64,000 bases of DNA from Candidatus Methanophagales archaeon. GTDB taxonomy: Archaea; Halobacteriota; Syntropharchaeia; Alkanophagales; Methanospirareceae. The stretch lies in NCBI GenBank assembly GCA_017883965.1, contig JAFNKG010000005.1:194-64193 (forward strand). Direction: 5' to 3'. A program made the position numbers and the translations under genes. The notes beneath the pieces were generated by a model. It saw only the letters and a list, made by a program, of their open reading frames with translations, was not told the DNA's origin and did no database searches. Below are positions 57,939 to 64,000 of this stretch, piece by piece (positions within the stretch are counted from its first letter, which is position 1; each line of letters begins with the position of its first letter).

Positions 57939-58562
57939 CTACAATAGACTTTCTATAAATTCCTTCTCAAGAACAGGAGCGGGAATAATATCAAAAAACA
58001 TGATTCCGGATAGCCTCAAGATTTCCAGGAGTCTATGCACTTCTTCTTCCGATAAGCCGTAAAGTTCCATAAGATCACTAAAAGGTGTCAGTAAAATGGA
58101 ACTGCCAGCACTGGTAATTTTCCCTTTAGAAAATCTGCTTGAAGAGACATCACTCAAAAATGTTCTGATGAATGGTGCAGCAGCATCGTAATCGGATATT
58201 TTCACCGCAATCTCTTTTCTGTTAACATGTCTAAGGTAAACTTCTTTGAGAATTTCATAAAAATCCAGTTCAATGATATCCAGGACCTCTTCATATTCAT
58301 AGAATGATGTATGCTCAACCAAAGCTTTAAGAAGCTCTTTCCCTGCGTCAACCGCTTCTATCAGCTTCTCATCTTTCAGGAAAATAGAAAGATAAGGTTC
58401 CAATCGTGCCTCCATTAATCCCTCTTCTCTACACAGAACAGGAATATCAGTCCCATATCTCACCCTGAATCTTAATATCAGTAAAGCTATGTAAACACCA
58501 AGTGCTTTGGCATCGTTGTCTATCCATTCCTTTCCGAACCATGATAATGTTCCCTTCATCAA
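57939..58562 (-). CDS. Hypothetical protein
   Basis: 207-aa ORF with no recognisable motif. Confidence 0.4.
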   Translation of the reverse strand: MMKGTLSWFGKEWIDNDAKALGVYIALLILRFRVRYGTDIPVLCREEGLMEARLEPYLSIFLKDEKLIEAVDAGKELLKALVEHTSFYEYEEVLDIIELDFYEILKEVYLRHVNRKEIAVKISDYDAAAPFIRTFLSDVSSSRFSKGKITSAGSSILLTPFSDLMELYGLSEEEVHRLLEILRLSGIMFFDIIPAPVLEKEFIESLL

Positions 58563-58616: not shown

Positions 58617-59909
58617 TTACAAATCAAAACCCACCTTTAACCTTTCCACGCACTCCTCCACGCTCAATTTCTCCTGCTCCCCAGTATCGAGATTTCTCAA
58701 TGTCACTTTCGCTTCTTTCATCTCGTTTTTACCCACGAGCACGGCAAAAGCGGCATTAATAGAATTTGCATAAGACAACTGAGCGCTTAGACTTCTGCGC
58801 ATCACATCCATATAAGTGGGGAAAAATTCCCTCAGCTCAAACGCTATTTTTATCGCCTCTTTAACCACATCCTGCGCAGCATTTTTCTCTCTTACCGGCA
58901 CCACTACTACCTTCATGCTCTTCAAATCCTTAGTTTCTAGGGGGAATATCTCCGCTACTCGGTCAAAGCCAAAAGCAAAACCGGTAGAAGGCGTGTCATC
59001 ACCACCGAACAATGCAGCCAGCCGATATGACCCGCCACCGCATATCTGATTCTGTGCTCCTAACTTGCCATCGGCTTCGTAGATCTCAAACACCATTCCA
59101 GTGTAATAATCCAAACCTCGTGCTATTCCAAGGTTCAAAGTATAAAGAACGCCGTAATAGTCAAGGATTTCCAGCAGCATCTCCAATTCCTTCAACGCAT
59201 CGCTGCTATCAGAAGCAACTATTTTGTGGTCACGTGCTTCCTTTAACGCATATTTTCCTTTTAAATCTATTAAACATATTAAGTCGTCAATCAACTCCTC
59301 TTTCACTCCCAGCTCGTTCATAAACCCAACCACTTCTTCTCTTTCTCCCTTGTCTATCAACCTCATCACATTGTTTATCTTCTCCTCACCCACATTTGCA
59401 CCACGTAATGTCTCTCTTATCAGACCCACATGACCCACGTGAAGCTCTGCTTTTACGCCCAACGACTTCACGATAAAGTAAGCGAGTGCGATTATCTCTG
59501 CCTGTGCCTCCGGACTGTCAGACCCGATTATCTCAGCGCCGAACTGCCAGAACTCTCTGTAACGAGCCTTTTGCGGCTCCTCATACCTGAAGCAATTGCC
59601 AAAATAATAAACCTTCGTTGGTTTCGGTGCCATCTTCAGTTCGTTAACATACATTCTTATCACAGGTGCGGTCAACTCAGGTCTCAGTGCTAAATGCCGT
59701 CCTCCCTTATCCTTGAACTCGTACATCTCTTTCAGGATTTCTTCGCCGGATTTGAGTGTGAAGAGTTCAGAGCGCTCAAAAGTGGGTGTTCTTATTTCTT
59801 CGTAGCCCCATTTCTCTGCTATCTCACGCATTCGCTCTTCCATTATTCTCCTCTTCCTCATTTCTGCGGGCATGAAGTCCCTTGTCCCACGTGCTCTTTC
59901 TATTCGCAT
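58617..59909 (-). CDS. hisS: Histidine--tRNA ligase
   Basis: Contains ARGTRDFMPAEM, a class II aaRS motif 2/3 region (FRYEEPQKARYREFWQFGAE) and a C-terminal anticodon-binding domain. Confidence 0.9.
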   Translation of the reverse strand: MRIERARGTRDFMPAEMRKRRIMEERMREIAEKWGYEEIRTPTFERSELFTLKSGEEILKEMYEFKDKGGRHLALRPELTAPVIRMYVNELKMAPKPTKVYYFGNCFRYEEPQKARYREFWQFGAEIIGSDSPEAQAEIIALAYFIVKSLGVKAELHVGHVGLIRETLRGANVGEEKINNVMRLIDKGEREEVVGFMNELGVKEELIDDLICLIDLKGKYALKEARDHKIVASDSSDALKELEMLLEILDYYGVLYTLNLGIARGLDYYTGMVFEIYEADGKLGAQNQICGGGSYRLAALFGGDDTPSTGFAFGFDRVAEIFPLETKDLKSMKVVVVPVREKNAAQDVVKEAIKIAFELREFFPTYMDVMRRSLSAQLSYANSINAAFAVLVGKNEMKEAKVTLRNLDTGEQEKLSVEECVERLKVGFDL

Positions 59910-60034: not shown

Positions 60035-60463
60035 ATGGAGAAAAAGGAAAAAGCCGTAAGGGATTTTGTGGAAAGAATTAGAGGAAAATTCAAGGATAAA
60101 ATAGAAGGGATAATCCTATTCGGAAGTTATGCACGTAGGGAAGCCAAGAAATTCTCTGATATTGATATTTTAATCGTGTTTAAAGAACTGCCAGAGGAAT
60201 GGGAAAAGAGGATAGAAAGTGTCATAGATGAGACTTCTGAAATCGCTTTGGTTTACGGTGTGAAAATATCTCCTCTTTTGCTCTCAAAAGAAGAGCTTTT
60301 GGATAATATTAATTCAGAAGCGCTTTTGTTCCTTGACTTAACCCGAAGCTATCGCATAATTTATGATAACTGTGGTTTTGAAGAAGAAATGGCAAAATTC
60401 AAAGAGAGAATTGCACGGGAATATACATACAATGAGGAGTTTGAGGCATGGATAGAGAAATAG
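60035..60463 (+). CDS. Minimal nucleotidyltransferase (MNT)
   Basis: Contains GIILFGSYARREAKKFSDIDILIVF. Confidence 0.7.
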   Translation: MEKKEKAVRDFVERIRGKFKDKIEGIILFGSYARREAKKFSDIDILIVFKELPEEWEKRIESVIDETSEIALVYGVKISPLLLSKEELLDNINSEALLFLDLTRSYRIIYDNCGFEEEMAKFKERIAREYTYNEEFEAWIEK

Positions 60464-60849
60464 TCGAGGCTTTTTGCAAATCCGCAGAGAGTGATTTAAA
60501 GCTTGCAGAGGAGCTTCTTGAAGCTGGGGAATATTATTATGCAAGCGTTATTTTCTCACAGCAAGCGGCTGAGAAAATTTGTAAAGCTTATTTAGCCTGT
60601 AAAGGGATGAAAAATATAAGAAAACATGATGTTTCAGGAATTTTAGCTCGGTTTATAGATGAAAAAGAAATAATAAAAGCTCTCCAGTTCCTTGAAGCCC
60701 ATGTGACCAAAGCAAGGTATCCTTTCAGGTTGGAACATAGATTAATTTCACCCCCAGAAGCTTATTCCAGAAAAGAAGCGAAACTTGCCTTTGAGAGAGC
60801 AAAGGCAGTTTATAATTATATCGTCGAGGAAATTGAAAAAGAAACATGA
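60448..60849 (+). CDS. HEPN-domain protein, partner of the MNT
   Basis: It overlaps the MNT gene by 16 bp. Contains AAEKICKAYL and KARYPF. Confidence 0.6.
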   Translation: MDREIVEAFCKSAESDLKLAEELLEAGEYYYASVIFSQQAAEKICKAYLACKGMKNIRKHDVSGILARFIDEKEIIKALQFLEAHVTKARYPFRLEHRLISPPEAYSRKEAKLAFERAKAVYNYIVEEIEKET

Positions 60850-61595
60850 ATTTCAGACTGATTTTTGTGATGGATTTGCTTAATGGTATTGTAGTGCATG
60901 CGAAGAAAGGAGAGCGTGATAAATACGAGCCAATTCACCTTTTCAGTTCTATCGTTAGTTCCTCTGATCCTGTACATGTCATCGAAGAGATAAAGCCTGA
61001 GGAAGTTTATATCGCTGACCTGAATAGACTCATGGGTACTGGCTCTAATAAAGGAATAATAAAGGAGATAAGAAATCGAAATAGAAACAGAAAGACGAGA
61101 ATAACGGTAGAATATGGTATAAAGAGGATGGAGGACCTGAAAGAGGCTGTTGAAGCCGGGATAGCCGATAGCATTATTTTAGGAACAGAAACAGCATCTA
61201 TGGAACTGATTGGTGAGGCTTCTAAAAATGATAGTTTTAAGGATACACGTGTAAGTGTGAGCGTTGACCTTTTCAATAAAGAAGTGCTGTCGAGGGATAA
61301 GAGGATGAAGATAGATCCTCTATTGTTAATACAAGAATTGAACGAATATCCGATAGGGGATGTAATCGTGCTGGAACTGGACAGAGTAGGAACGAAAAGT
61401 GGAATAGACTTTGATTTCCTCGCTCGTGCTGTTGAGTGCTCAGAACGGGACATACTGTGCGGTGGTGGCGTTAGGAGTTGCGAAGATGTGCATAAGATGG
61501 AAGAGATAGGAGTAAAAGGCGCACTGGTCGCTACTGCTGTTCACGATGGGGGTATTCCTTTATCATTTATTCGAGAAGAGGGATCCGTTAAATGA
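60846..61595 (+). CDS. HisA/HisF-family (beta/alpha)8-barrel protein
   Basis: The N-terminus reads LIFVMDLLNGIVVHA. The C-terminal phosphate-binding region reads GGGVRSCEDVHKMEEIGVKGALVATAVHDG. Confidence 0.5.
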   Translation: MNFRLIFVMDLLNGIVVHAKKGERDKYEPIHLFSSIVSSSDPVHVIEEIKPEEVYIADLNRLMGTGSNKGIIKEIRNRNRNRKTRITVEYGIKRMEDLKEAVEAGIADSIILGTETASMELIGEASKNDSFKDTRVSVSVDLFNKEVLSRDKRMKIDPLLLIQELNEYPIGDVIVLELDRVGTKSGIDFDFLARAVECSERDILCGGGVRSCEDVHKMEEIGVKGALVATAVHDGGIPLSFIREEGSVK

Positions 61596-61753
61596 AAGTA
61601 TAAAGTTAAAAGCGAAATATTTAAATTGGATTTCCCGTATATTATGTTTATGCTTGAAATATTATACATTTGCGTTATCGCAGGTGTGCTTTGGTTTCTC
61701 TATATCTATCAGAAGGATGACCAATATTACCAACCCGCATAAAATTACGACTT

Positions 61754-62164
61754 TTAACTTCCTTCTAGTTCTCCAACTTCTAAATTTTTCCTCGCAATTT
61801 CCAATATTTCCTCTGCTACGGATATTACAAACTCACCTTCTTTTACTTCTAACCTTGCTGACGGAACATACCTCGCCTCTGCTCTGAGCATCAAAGCTTT
61901 AACGACATTCTCTCCGAGTTCTTTGCTTATTTCCCCAGTGTTAACGAATATTTCTCCGAATTGTTGGATTAGTTCTCCATGTGAAGATGCTAAGCTTTTC
62001 CTTTTGCTTATTATTAGCGCTTTTACTAGATGCTCGATGGCATTGTATCCAGCATCTATGCAAAGCCTTATCTTTTCTTCTCTCATTGCATCCTTCGCAT
62101 AGCTCAAATACTCGTTTGCCAGTTGTAAATACTCCTCAAACTCAAATTTCCATTCTCTTTCCAT
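61754..62164 (-). CDS. HEPN-domain protein, partner of the upstream MNT fusion
   Basis: Contains AGYNAIEHLVKALII and RAEARYVPS, the HEPN R-x-Y/H region. It overlaps 62142..63818 by 23 bp. Confidence 0.55.
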   Translation of the reverse strand: MEREWKFEFEEYLQLANEYLSYAKDAMREEKIRLCIDAGYNAIEHLVKALIISKRKSLASSHGELIQQFGEIFVNTGEISKELGENVVKALMLRAEARYVPSARLEVKEGEFVISVAEEILEIARKNLEVGELEGS

Positions 62165-64000
62165 GCTCTAACACCTCCCATAAAAATGGTGATTTACCTA
62201 TCTGCCGGTTGAATTCGTCCTCATCAAATAAAATCACCTCCATTAACTCCCCATGTTCGCATGCGATATCAAAAGATATTCCGCCTATTTTATCCATTAT
62301 TTCTTCTCTCGCAATACTTTTATAAACCACAAGGGCATCAATATCACTACGCTTTTTAGCGGTTCCTTTTGCCAAACTTCCATACACATAAATCTCAATT
62401 ATGTTCTCACCAAGTGTGTTTCGAACCCTACCTGTAAATTCTTTCAGTGCTTCTTCCTTCTTACTCGATATCAAGCTATACAATGCCACGAGTTTATTTT
62501 TCTCACTTAAATATCTCTTCTCTTTTATTCGTCCTTCTTTTTTCAATTCTTCTAAACTCACAAGTTCTTTATTTACATCTTCTTCCAGAATATCTAAGAA
62601 TGGCTTCTCGTCTCCATCTTTTATATCAAATCTGATATCATCGAGTCTATCAATCAAAAAATCGCCAATCACCGCTATAAAAATGCCTATGAATACCGAA
62701 AATAAAGATCCAGGTAATATCCTATCCAAGACAGGGTTTGCAACAGGGAAAGTCAATACGGGTGGCAAGAATTTTGTTACGAAGTAATCTATTAAGGTGA
62801 TGCTCAGCACTGCATCTAATGCAAAGAAGATACTTTTTTCTCTCATACGCAATCTGAACTTATCGAGGTTCTTCCTCAATTCAATTTTAATTTTATATGT
62901 TTTCTTCTTCAGGGTTTTTGACGGAAACTCAGCGAAATATGCACGCTTTGGGTTCAATATAGTTACTTCACTATGCATTTTTCCACCTGGTAGACTTGCA
63001 CTGCATTTCACAGAGCGATTCGAATTATTGAATAGTATAAGAAGTGTCGTGTCTTTACGAGCTGCAACTAGGGCGCCAATGCCCATCAAGAAATGAGATT
63101 TTAAAGAAGTAGTTAAAAAATGCCATGTCGCAGGTTTTGCGCTTATATCTAACAGCGGACCTACACCAATAACAATTACGCCTAATATCTTCGCTACGAA
63201 TTTGCGAATAGATTGTAAAATGAAAGATTCAAAAAATTCGCCTATTAAATACTTCCATATAAATATAAAAGCACCTATGATAATACCGATTTTAGAAAGT
63301 TCTTCTAACAGGCTCGCCTTTGGCAAATACCATGGTCCCTTTCCATTGCCAACAGCGTGATTATCTCTGAATACAATGCCTTTACATGAATCATCTACAT
63401 AGAAACCGTACTCTGCGTTAAAAGAAGCATCGTTGTTTATTATCATGTCGTTATTCGAAGATGTAATATAAACACCACTTCTCATACTAAATTTTGCAGT
63501 ATTGTTAATTATCTGACAGTTATCAGATGAGTCCAGAAAGATGCCAAAGAGTGATAGTTGACGTGGAGGGTTTCTGTGAAGGTTACCATGGATATCATAG
63601 GTTGGTGGATTTAATGGATCTTTCCAGAATTGATTTACAGTATTGTTGATTATTTGGTTGTTAAGGGATGAAACTAACGAGATACCAGCGAAGCTGTTAA
63701 AATCAGCGGTGTTATAGTTTATATTATTGCTGGACGAATCTCTTAGCGAGATACCTTTTTGGTCGTTATAAATGGCGGTGTTATAAGTTACATTGTTGTT
63801 GCTGGACGAATCTAGCACGATGCCAGAAAAGTCGTTACGGTTGGCTGTGTTAGAGGTTATATTGTTGTTACTGGATGAATGTAGCGAGATACCCTCTTGG
63901 TCGTTATACTTGGCTCTGTTATGGATTATATCGTTGTTGCTGGACGAATGTAGCGAGATACCGTTTTCGTTTAAATTAACGATGTTATTAACTATGCTAT
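62142..64000 (-). CDS. Multidomain protein: N-terminal parallel beta-helix (PbH1/NosD-like) repeats, a polytopic TM region and a C-terminal MNT nucleotidyltransferase domain. The N-terminus runs past the window edge.
   Basis: The MNT motif IEIYVYGSLAKGTAKKRSDIDALVVY is present. The N-terminus has repeated SSSNNNxTxNTAxxN units. The track ORF ends at 63818, but the frame stays open and repeat-encoding through position 64000. Confidence 0.55.
   Translation of the reverse strand, partial: SIVNNIVNLNENGISLHSSSNNDIIHNRAKYNDQEGISLHSSSNNNITSNTANRNDFSGIVLDSSSNNNVTYNTAIYNDQKGISLRDSSSNNINYNTADFNSFAGISLVSSLNNQIINNTVNQFWKDPLNPPTYDIHGNLHRNPPRQLSLFGIFLDSSDNCQIINNTAKFSMRSGVYITSSNNDMIINNDASFNAEYGFYVDDSCKGIVFRDNHAVGNGKGPWYLPKASLLEELSKIGIIIGAFIFIWKYLIGEFFESFILQSIRKFVAKILGVIVIGVGPLLDISAKPATWHFLTTSLKSHFLMGIGALVAARKDTTLLILFNNSNRSVKCSASLPGGKMHSEVTILNPKRAYFAEFPSKTLKKKTYKIKIELRKNLDKFRLRMREKSIFFALDAVLSITLIDYFVTKFLPPVLTFPVANPVLDRILPGSLFSVFIGIFIAVIGDFLIDRLDDIRFDIKDGDEKPFLDILEEDVNKELVSLEELKKEGRIKEKRYLSEKNKLVALYSLISSKKEEALKEFTGRVRNTLGENIIEIYVYGSLAKGTAKKRSDIDALVVYKSIAREEIMDKIGGISFDIACEHGELMEVILFDEDEFNRQIGKSPFLWEVLEHGKRMEI

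Follow-up and report, generated by a model that had tools for sequence, protein, structure and literature searches.

A minimal nucleotidyltransferase domain in frame with membrane segments and a beta-helix, beside an overlapping HEPN gene, in an ANME-1 archaeon

In a 64,000-nucleotide stretch of contig JAFNKG010000005.1 from a Candidatus Methanophagales archaeon (the window), we analysed a long minus-strand open reading frame (ORF) that stops at 62142-62144, runs off the end of the window, and shares its 3' end with a HEPN gene. Parallel beta-helix coils, transmembrane (TM) segments and a minimal nucleotidyltransferase (MNT) domain are confirmed to lie in one frame of this ORF, with the HEPN gene as an overlapping partner. 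The preliminary description of this DNA had made its proposal of an unusual variant depend on the recurrence of the beta-helix/TM/MNT architecture, which was not found in any other genome. The reading that we favour, with a probability of roughly 55 %, is a strain-specific, one-off fusion that joined an MNT/HEPN cassette, still with an ordinary toxin-antitoxin function, to a surface-protein gene. As such, the fusion looks like a recent local accident and not like a new signalling system.

A single frame from the beta-helix to the MNT

The minus-strand translation of 62142-63998 yielded 618 codons without a stop, and the frame is still open at the end of the window. The GTG at 63818 is merely the first listed start; ORFs that run off the window were absent from the program listing. 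The features of the locus are listed below, with residues numbered along these 618 codons and with 1.4 as the Kyte-Doolittle threshold for a TM call.

63324-64000, minus strand: parallel beta-helix coils (PbH1/NosD-type), residues 1-225, cut N-terminally by the end of the window and contig (Pfam, TIGR03804)
63762-63962, minus strand: tandem repeat of 69 nt (23 residues) within the beta-helix, 2.9 copies, 77 % identity
63231-63299, minus strand: TM1, residues 234-256 (Kyte-Doolittle peak 1.84)
63141-63209, minus strand: TM2, residues 264-286 (Kyte-Doolittle peak 2.14)
63054-63116, minus strand: marginal hydrophobic segment, possible TM3, residues 295-315 (mean ~1.27 by hand)
62835-63053, minus strand: very basic loop, residues 316-388, predicted strand-rich (sequence, low-confidence AlphaFold2 model)
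62766-62834, minus strand: TM4, residues 389-411 (Kyte-Doolittle peak 1.83)
62643-62717, minus strand: TM5, residues 428-452 (Kyte-Doolittle peak 2.40)
62469-62642, minus strand: charged (acidic and basic) helical linker without homologue, residues 453-510 (coding signature)
62142-62468, minus strand: MNT, residues 511-618 and stop, GS-x10-DID (Pfam, PADLOC and PDB matches)
62172-62179, minus strand: strong Shine-Dalgarno sequence of HEPN, GGGAGGTG, 7 nt ahead of its ATG
61754-62164, minus strand: HEPN (HEPN-T, PF05168), 136 residues (Pfam)

The C-terminal domain of the ORF passed the cut-offs of two Pfam families within residues 530-568 (NTP_transf_2 PF01909, 34.1 bits at a cut-off of 21; Polbeta PF18765, 30.8 bits at a cut-off of 26.9), matched PADLOC PDC-S09 full-length (positions 5-104 of 108), and hit PDB 9xbd chain E and 2rff in the structural database. 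The motif YGSLAKGTAKKRSDIDALVV, quoted earlier for this MNT, is present. Its neighbour matched PF05168 with an E value of 2.5e-14 (53.9 bits, residues 10-126) as well as PDB 9xbd chain A, and thus MNT and HEPN match both partners of one solved HEPN/nucleotidyltransferase complex. The HEPN gene overlaps the 3' end of the long ORF by 23 nt, and the codons for the conserved Trp-Glu-Val (W-E-V) of the MNT supply its Shine-Dalgarno sequence. At the other end of the ORF, the family thresholds for repeated beta-helix coils were passed (Beta_helix PF13229, E 4.9e-25, 88.4 bits; NosD PF05048, E 3.2e-24, 86 bits; TIGR03804 para_beta_helix, E 5.3e-32, 109.2 bits in five stretches), with the best stretches at residues 2-121. 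Hence the beta-helix repeats, the canonical C-terminal MNT, the overlapping HEPN gene and the frame open to the window end, all claimed in the preliminary description, are borne out.

The same frame was recovered in two further assemblies. An ENA scaffold (L001, 9161 bp) is 100 % identical to the window over 9109 bases and extends 52 bases beyond it, and a Logan contig (L002, 2564 bp) is 100 % identical over 2537 bases and extends 27 bases beyond; in both, the ORF is still open. Extension of the contig towards the true N-terminus and a signal peptide, as earlier proposed, thus gained just 17 residues, all still beta-helix. The ORF has at least 636 residues, and the N-terminus still lies beyond every assembly. 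Probably, the 69-nt tandem repeat is the reason why every assembly breaks there, and the repeated 16-mers within 61600-64000 are confined to its area.

Coding potential was scored as log-odds of codon usage, with 24 long ORFs from the window as the training set, and for every segment of the ORF the read frame scored best. The TM segments, the linker and the MNT reached 0.23-0.38, which is the range of HisS, the HisA-like gene and the neighbouring MNT/HEPN pair. The linker alone scored 0.38, with a G+C content by codon position of 0.49/0.16/0.24. The basic loop scored just 0.07, the weakest among the non-repeat segments, and the Asn/Ser-rich beta-helix -0.12, yet far above its other frames. The five other reading frames of the region carry many stops, and by our own estimate (~0.07 stops per codon from ~36 % G+C) the chance of 295 stop-free codons is ~5e-10. 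A gene on the opposite strand under the TM region was considered and rejected, the plus-strand ORFs there being short, of low complexity and lower in coding score.

These observations bear on the explanation that a chimeric join or consensus error in the metagenome assembly merged separate genes. Such an artefact might be suspected because all three assemblies apparently derive from one sample, judged by their accessions, and are not biologically independent, and because the gene lies beside the repeats where every assembly breaks. However, the ENA and Logan assemblies are 100 % identical across both domain junctions, no 16-mer at either junction recurs within the window, and a single error could not clear all stops over 390 codons and at the same time keep a frame-specific codon usage. 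The sequence examined showed no sign of a frame error or repeat-driven misjoin, and beta-helix and MNT do not fall into different frames, an outcome for which the preliminary description had allowed; we consider an artefact very unlikely.

Membrane topology and a possible sensor

Hydropathy gave four clear TM segments, and the earlier count of at least five was slightly overstated: the fifth, the candidate TM3, falls below the 1.4 threshold and appears solely as a short helix in the low-confidence AlphaFold2 model. This model, computed for residues 226-618 without an alignment, had a mean pLDDT of 45, with moderate confidence for the MNT part only. Residues 314-388 comprise 20 lysines or arginines and six aspartates or glutamates, and the basic loop (316-388) is presumably cytoplasmic. 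If the candidate TM3 is real, the protein would be N-out, C-in by the positive-inside rule. The beta-helix would then be outside, and the MNT, although tethered, would be cytoplasmic and within reach of HEPN; if there are just four TM helices, both ends of the ORF are on the same side of the membrane. The predicted extracytoplasmic position of the beta-helix thus hinges, in a sequence that is cut at its N-terminus, on that one marginal segment.

The preliminary description had suggested a signal-responsive variant of the MNT/HEPN pair, and such a membrane-tethered antitoxin can be pictured as follows. The beta-helix outside the cell would sense virus attachment, envelope damage or a glycan, and the signal, passed on via five TM helices, would inactivate the MNT in the cytoplasm and so release the HEPN RNase, with abortive infection or dormancy as the outcome. 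A five-helix, N-out/C-in arrangement fits the positive-inside rule, as it places the basic stretches 257-266 and 314-388 and the C-terminal tail in the cytoplasm; furthermore, the MNT has no obvious independent start, the whole ORF is coding-like, and bacterial membrane-associated HEPN proteins were proposed to sense surface stimuli (PMC3710099). However, the topology hangs on a TM3 with a mean hydropathy of ~1.27, the N-terminus and any signal peptide are absent from the available sequence, the architecture is a singleton whose supposed transducer is not conserved, and the closest relative, L006, lacks the locus. We regard this tethered antitoxin as unlikely, and a fully wired system, in which an ANME-1 surface beta-helix receptor acts through five TM helices on an MNT controlling the HEPN RNase and senses virus contact or envelope damage, as a shade less likely still. 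The suggested signal-responsiveness found no support in an orphan TM and linker region, in MNT relatives that are soluble, and in a nearest relative without the locus.

Relatives of the pair and history of the locus

Negative results from the protein searches cover other sampled organisms, as the collection does not hold the proteins of this sample (exact cluster look-up); the absence of self matches is due to this, and the negatives are unaffected by self-matching. An exhaustive HMMER search of 1.84 billion representative proteins returned zero homologues for residues 226-520 (295 residues), and residues 226-510 are thus described here as orphan sequence. The full-length query retrieved only generic archaeal beta-helix proteins, at 30-50 % identity and a coverage of at most 41 %, so homologues were found for the beta-helix part only. 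A query of TM region plus MNT retrieved one protein, and one of linker plus MNT three, namely P0118 (265 residues), P0119 (239) and P0120 (206), all soluble single-polypeptide MNT-HEPN proteins without TM or beta-helix. The MNT is 56 % identical to that of P0118 (over 105 residues) and 57 % to that of P0119, and HEPN is 62 % identical to the HEPN half of P0118. The P0118 gene follows a CDC48-like gene, and its surroundings contain neither membrane nor beta-helix genes. A scan of GTDB genomes with TM plus MNT gave no match. The sole match in JGI metagenomes (L084 2338-2817, an unrelated protein of 159 residues) was judged a chance identity, as it shares the linker decapeptide FDIKDGDEKP, which is the search pattern itself. 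Pfam matches to the middle part at E values up to 10 (GvpG, DMAP_binding, 2HCT) were dismissed as noise, and a SLATT-like or other TM effector of conflict systems was rejected, as no Pfam or PADLOC match fell outside the MNT. In the literature searched, an MNT tethered to TM helices or to a beta-helix was nowhere described.

The nearest relatives of the pair (L003 2068-2865 and P0118-P0120), which come from JGI and ENA metagenomes, belong to the PF05168 class and have MNT and HEPN fused in a single polypeptide. Compared with these, the junction in the window has a shorter linker and a frame change that leads to two overlapping genes: the stop codon at 62142-62144 and the change of frame separate MNT from HEPN where P0118 and P0119 read through.

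The HisS gene of the window (58617-59909) shares 91 % identity with the metagenome-assembled genome CSMAG_1265 (L006) and 70-85 % with dozens of other ANME-1 genomes, which places the host within ANME-1/Methanophagales. L006 is the closest relative, with ~92 % DNA identity across HisS and its neighbours. It retains HisS and the HisA-like gene and lacks both the block of HEPN gene and fusion ORF and a further MNT/HEPN pair that the window carries between these two genes at 60035-60849. This second pair, ~1.3 kb from the fusion locus on the plus strand, is canonical, with an MNT of 142 and a HEPN of 133 residues. In L006 the spacer between HisS and the HisA-like gene is 82 bp long, and the comparison indicates a recent insertion of the pair as a putative cassette. 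Another genome, L004, holds the HEPN half of this pair, and no MNT match was found there.

Past the HisA-like gene, a PspA-like block follows in L006 and L007, and the HEPN gene and the fusion ORF follow in the window. Synteny with L006 ends in the final 37 nt (61558-61595) of the HisA-like gene, which spans 60846-61595, so that a putative recombination breakpoint is placed inside its coding sequence. The C-terminus of the HisA-like protein differs accordingly between the window (...GGIPLSFIREEGSVK) and L006 (...SAIPVSLLRL). As L006 is without both MNT/HEPN blocks, these cassettes appear to be mobile here, and the site differs between ANME-1 genomes. A search for direct or inverted repeats on both sides of the MNT/HEPN cassette at the fusion locus, as scars of an insertion, gave only short chance matches.

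On this background, the favoured one-off fusion can be outlined. A mobile two-gene cassette of the HEPN-T class would have landed at the 3' end of a fast-evolving gene for a surface beta-helix membrane protein, and the MNT would then be read in frame as the C-terminal domain of that protein, an outcome to be expected in ~1 of 3 joins by our own estimate once the upstream stop is lost. HEPN would be translated from its own ribosome-binding site and neutralised by the MNT through binding and/or nucleotidylylation, with the neutralising MNT being either the cytoplasmic tail of the membrane protein or the product of an internal start at GTG504 or TTG509. Most likely, the cassette has kept the function of an ordinary MNT/HEPN toxin-antitoxin pair, and the beta-helix and TM regions are probably carried along as a passenger and do not act as a sensor.

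Where the MNT would start is central to a further explanation, namely read-through without function. Here, the MNT would be made mainly as a free protein of ~110 residues that starts at GTG504 or TTG509, perhaps with transcription from a promoter inside the ORF. The long ORF would be a disrupted or decaying surface-protein gene, in frame by coincidence, for which we again estimate a chance of about one in three after an insertion that removed its stop. In-frame GTG504 (62487-62489), TTG506 and TTG509 (62472-62474) lie inside the linker and coincide with the aligned starts of free-standing MNT relatives: Met1 of P0118 aligns to residue 503, with BLASTP identity beginning at residue 512, and Met1 of P0119 aligns to about residue 511. 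Furthermore, an A/T-rich, TATA-like ATATTTAA is found ~20 nt upstream of GTG504, and MNT/HEPN cassettes are inserted in this genome relative to L006. However, GTG504, TTG506 and TTG509 lack a Shine-Dalgarno sequence, which is clear at many genes of the window including HEPN, and from M385 up to the MNT core there is no ATG. In this A/T-rich coding sequence TATA-like strings are frequent, and the upstream part bears no signs of decay, being free of stops and having a good codon usage across the TM segments and linker. Independent translation of the MNT is thus possible, not indicated, and we consider read-through without function plausible, but clearly less likely than the one-off fusion.

The one-off fusion with an ordinary toxin-antitoxin function has to face several of these points itself. 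With neither an ATG from M385 to the MNT core nor a Shine-Dalgarno sequence at the GTG and TTG candidates, no MNT start is evident, and the MNT may therefore exist only as the long fusion, which would argue for the fusion as the functional form. The linker carries a clean coding signature, unlike a former intergenic spacer. Moreover, this is a single sequence, so that neither selection nor age can be measured, and in a protein database that is without this sample's proteins the coverage of close ANME-1 strains is incomplete.

Two neighbouring observations concern surface proteins and the surroundings of HisS. Several ANME-1 genomes (L027 1118-3580, L031 464-2923 and L054 431-2890) encode a conserved beta-helix surface protein of ~820 residues a few kb from HisS, in the orientation opposite to that of the ORF in the window. 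This protein is anchored by an N-terminal helix and lacks TM helices at its C-terminus. In the window, an ORF of 207 residues beside HisS (57939-58562, minus strand) matches L006 11348-11739 over residues 1-62 and 134-207 only, which suggests an indel of ~70 residues or a frameshift between the two.

Comparison with known systems

Characterised AMPylating MNT/HEPN systems reportedly use a DUF86-type HepT. The HEPN-T/PF05168 class, to which the HEPN of the window belongs, is common in archaea. The locus resembles MNT/HEPN modules (type VII HepT/MntA) in that an MNT with GS...DxD is followed by an overlapping HEPN gene. Unlike in these modules, with their small stand-alone cytosolic MNT of about 100-140 residues, the MNT here forms the C-terminal end of an ORF that has at least 636 residues, 4-5 TM segments and a beta-helix. 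In characterised pairs, the HEPN RNase is neutralised by an MNT that forms a complex with it and AMPylates a tyrosine beside the active-site motif (PMC7641770, PMC11586414, PMC13000451). The PF05168 family was termed HEPN-T by Anantharaman et al. (PMC3710099), and the HEPN RNase motif is Rx4-6H, in which D can replace H in HEPN-T (PMC3710099, Table 1). At the position of this motif, the HEPN of the window reads R94-AEAR-Y99, versus RNRSDY in 9xbd chain A, and it also carries an R55-x6-H62 stretch with a conserved SSH elsewhere than at the aligned position.

Fused MNT-HEPN proteins have been characterised as well, such as FhepTA of Shewanella (PMC13000451), and the fused proteins P0118-P0120 are the closest sequence relatives of the window's pair. 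In contrast to these soluble single polypeptides of 206-265 residues, the window has two overlapping genes and an MNT that is extended N-terminally. The joining of a conflict-system module to TM helices is also reminiscent of bacterial membrane-associated HEPN proteins, which were proposed to couple surface stimuli to RNA cleavage (PMC3710099). In those bacterial systems, however, the HEPN itself bears the TM helices and the families are conserved (PMC3710099), whereas the window's locus has its MNT partner tethered, in an arrangement that is unique; by eye, the 136-residue HEPN has no hydrophobic stretch, no hydropathy having been computed for it. The 23-residue coils with their S-S-S-N-N signature are like those of archaeal PbH1/NosD surface proteins, and similar ones occur in the ANME-1 loci L027, L031, L054 and L049. 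Of the proteins inspected, those of L027, L031 and L054 begin with a signal or anchor helix, and that of L049 ends with a single anchor helix. Unlike the window's ORF, none of these ANME-1 proteins has a polytopic region or a C-terminal enzyme domain.

Thus, membrane-associated HEPN and fused MNT-HEPN proteins are already known, and for an MNT tethered to TM helices and a beta-helix there is a single case, from one metagenome. If the fusion is made and active, it would be, to our knowledge, the first known MNT antitoxin to be membrane-anchored behind an extracellular domain, and it would hint that type VII-like toxin-antitoxin pairs can couple to surface events. Mainly, the locus illustrates the insertion of MNT/HEPN cassettes in ANME-1, with two within 4 kb relative to a genome of ~92 % identity. 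Such insertions can create new multi-domain ORFs, and rather than as evidence for a new system, we present the fusion as an example of gene birth by fusion.

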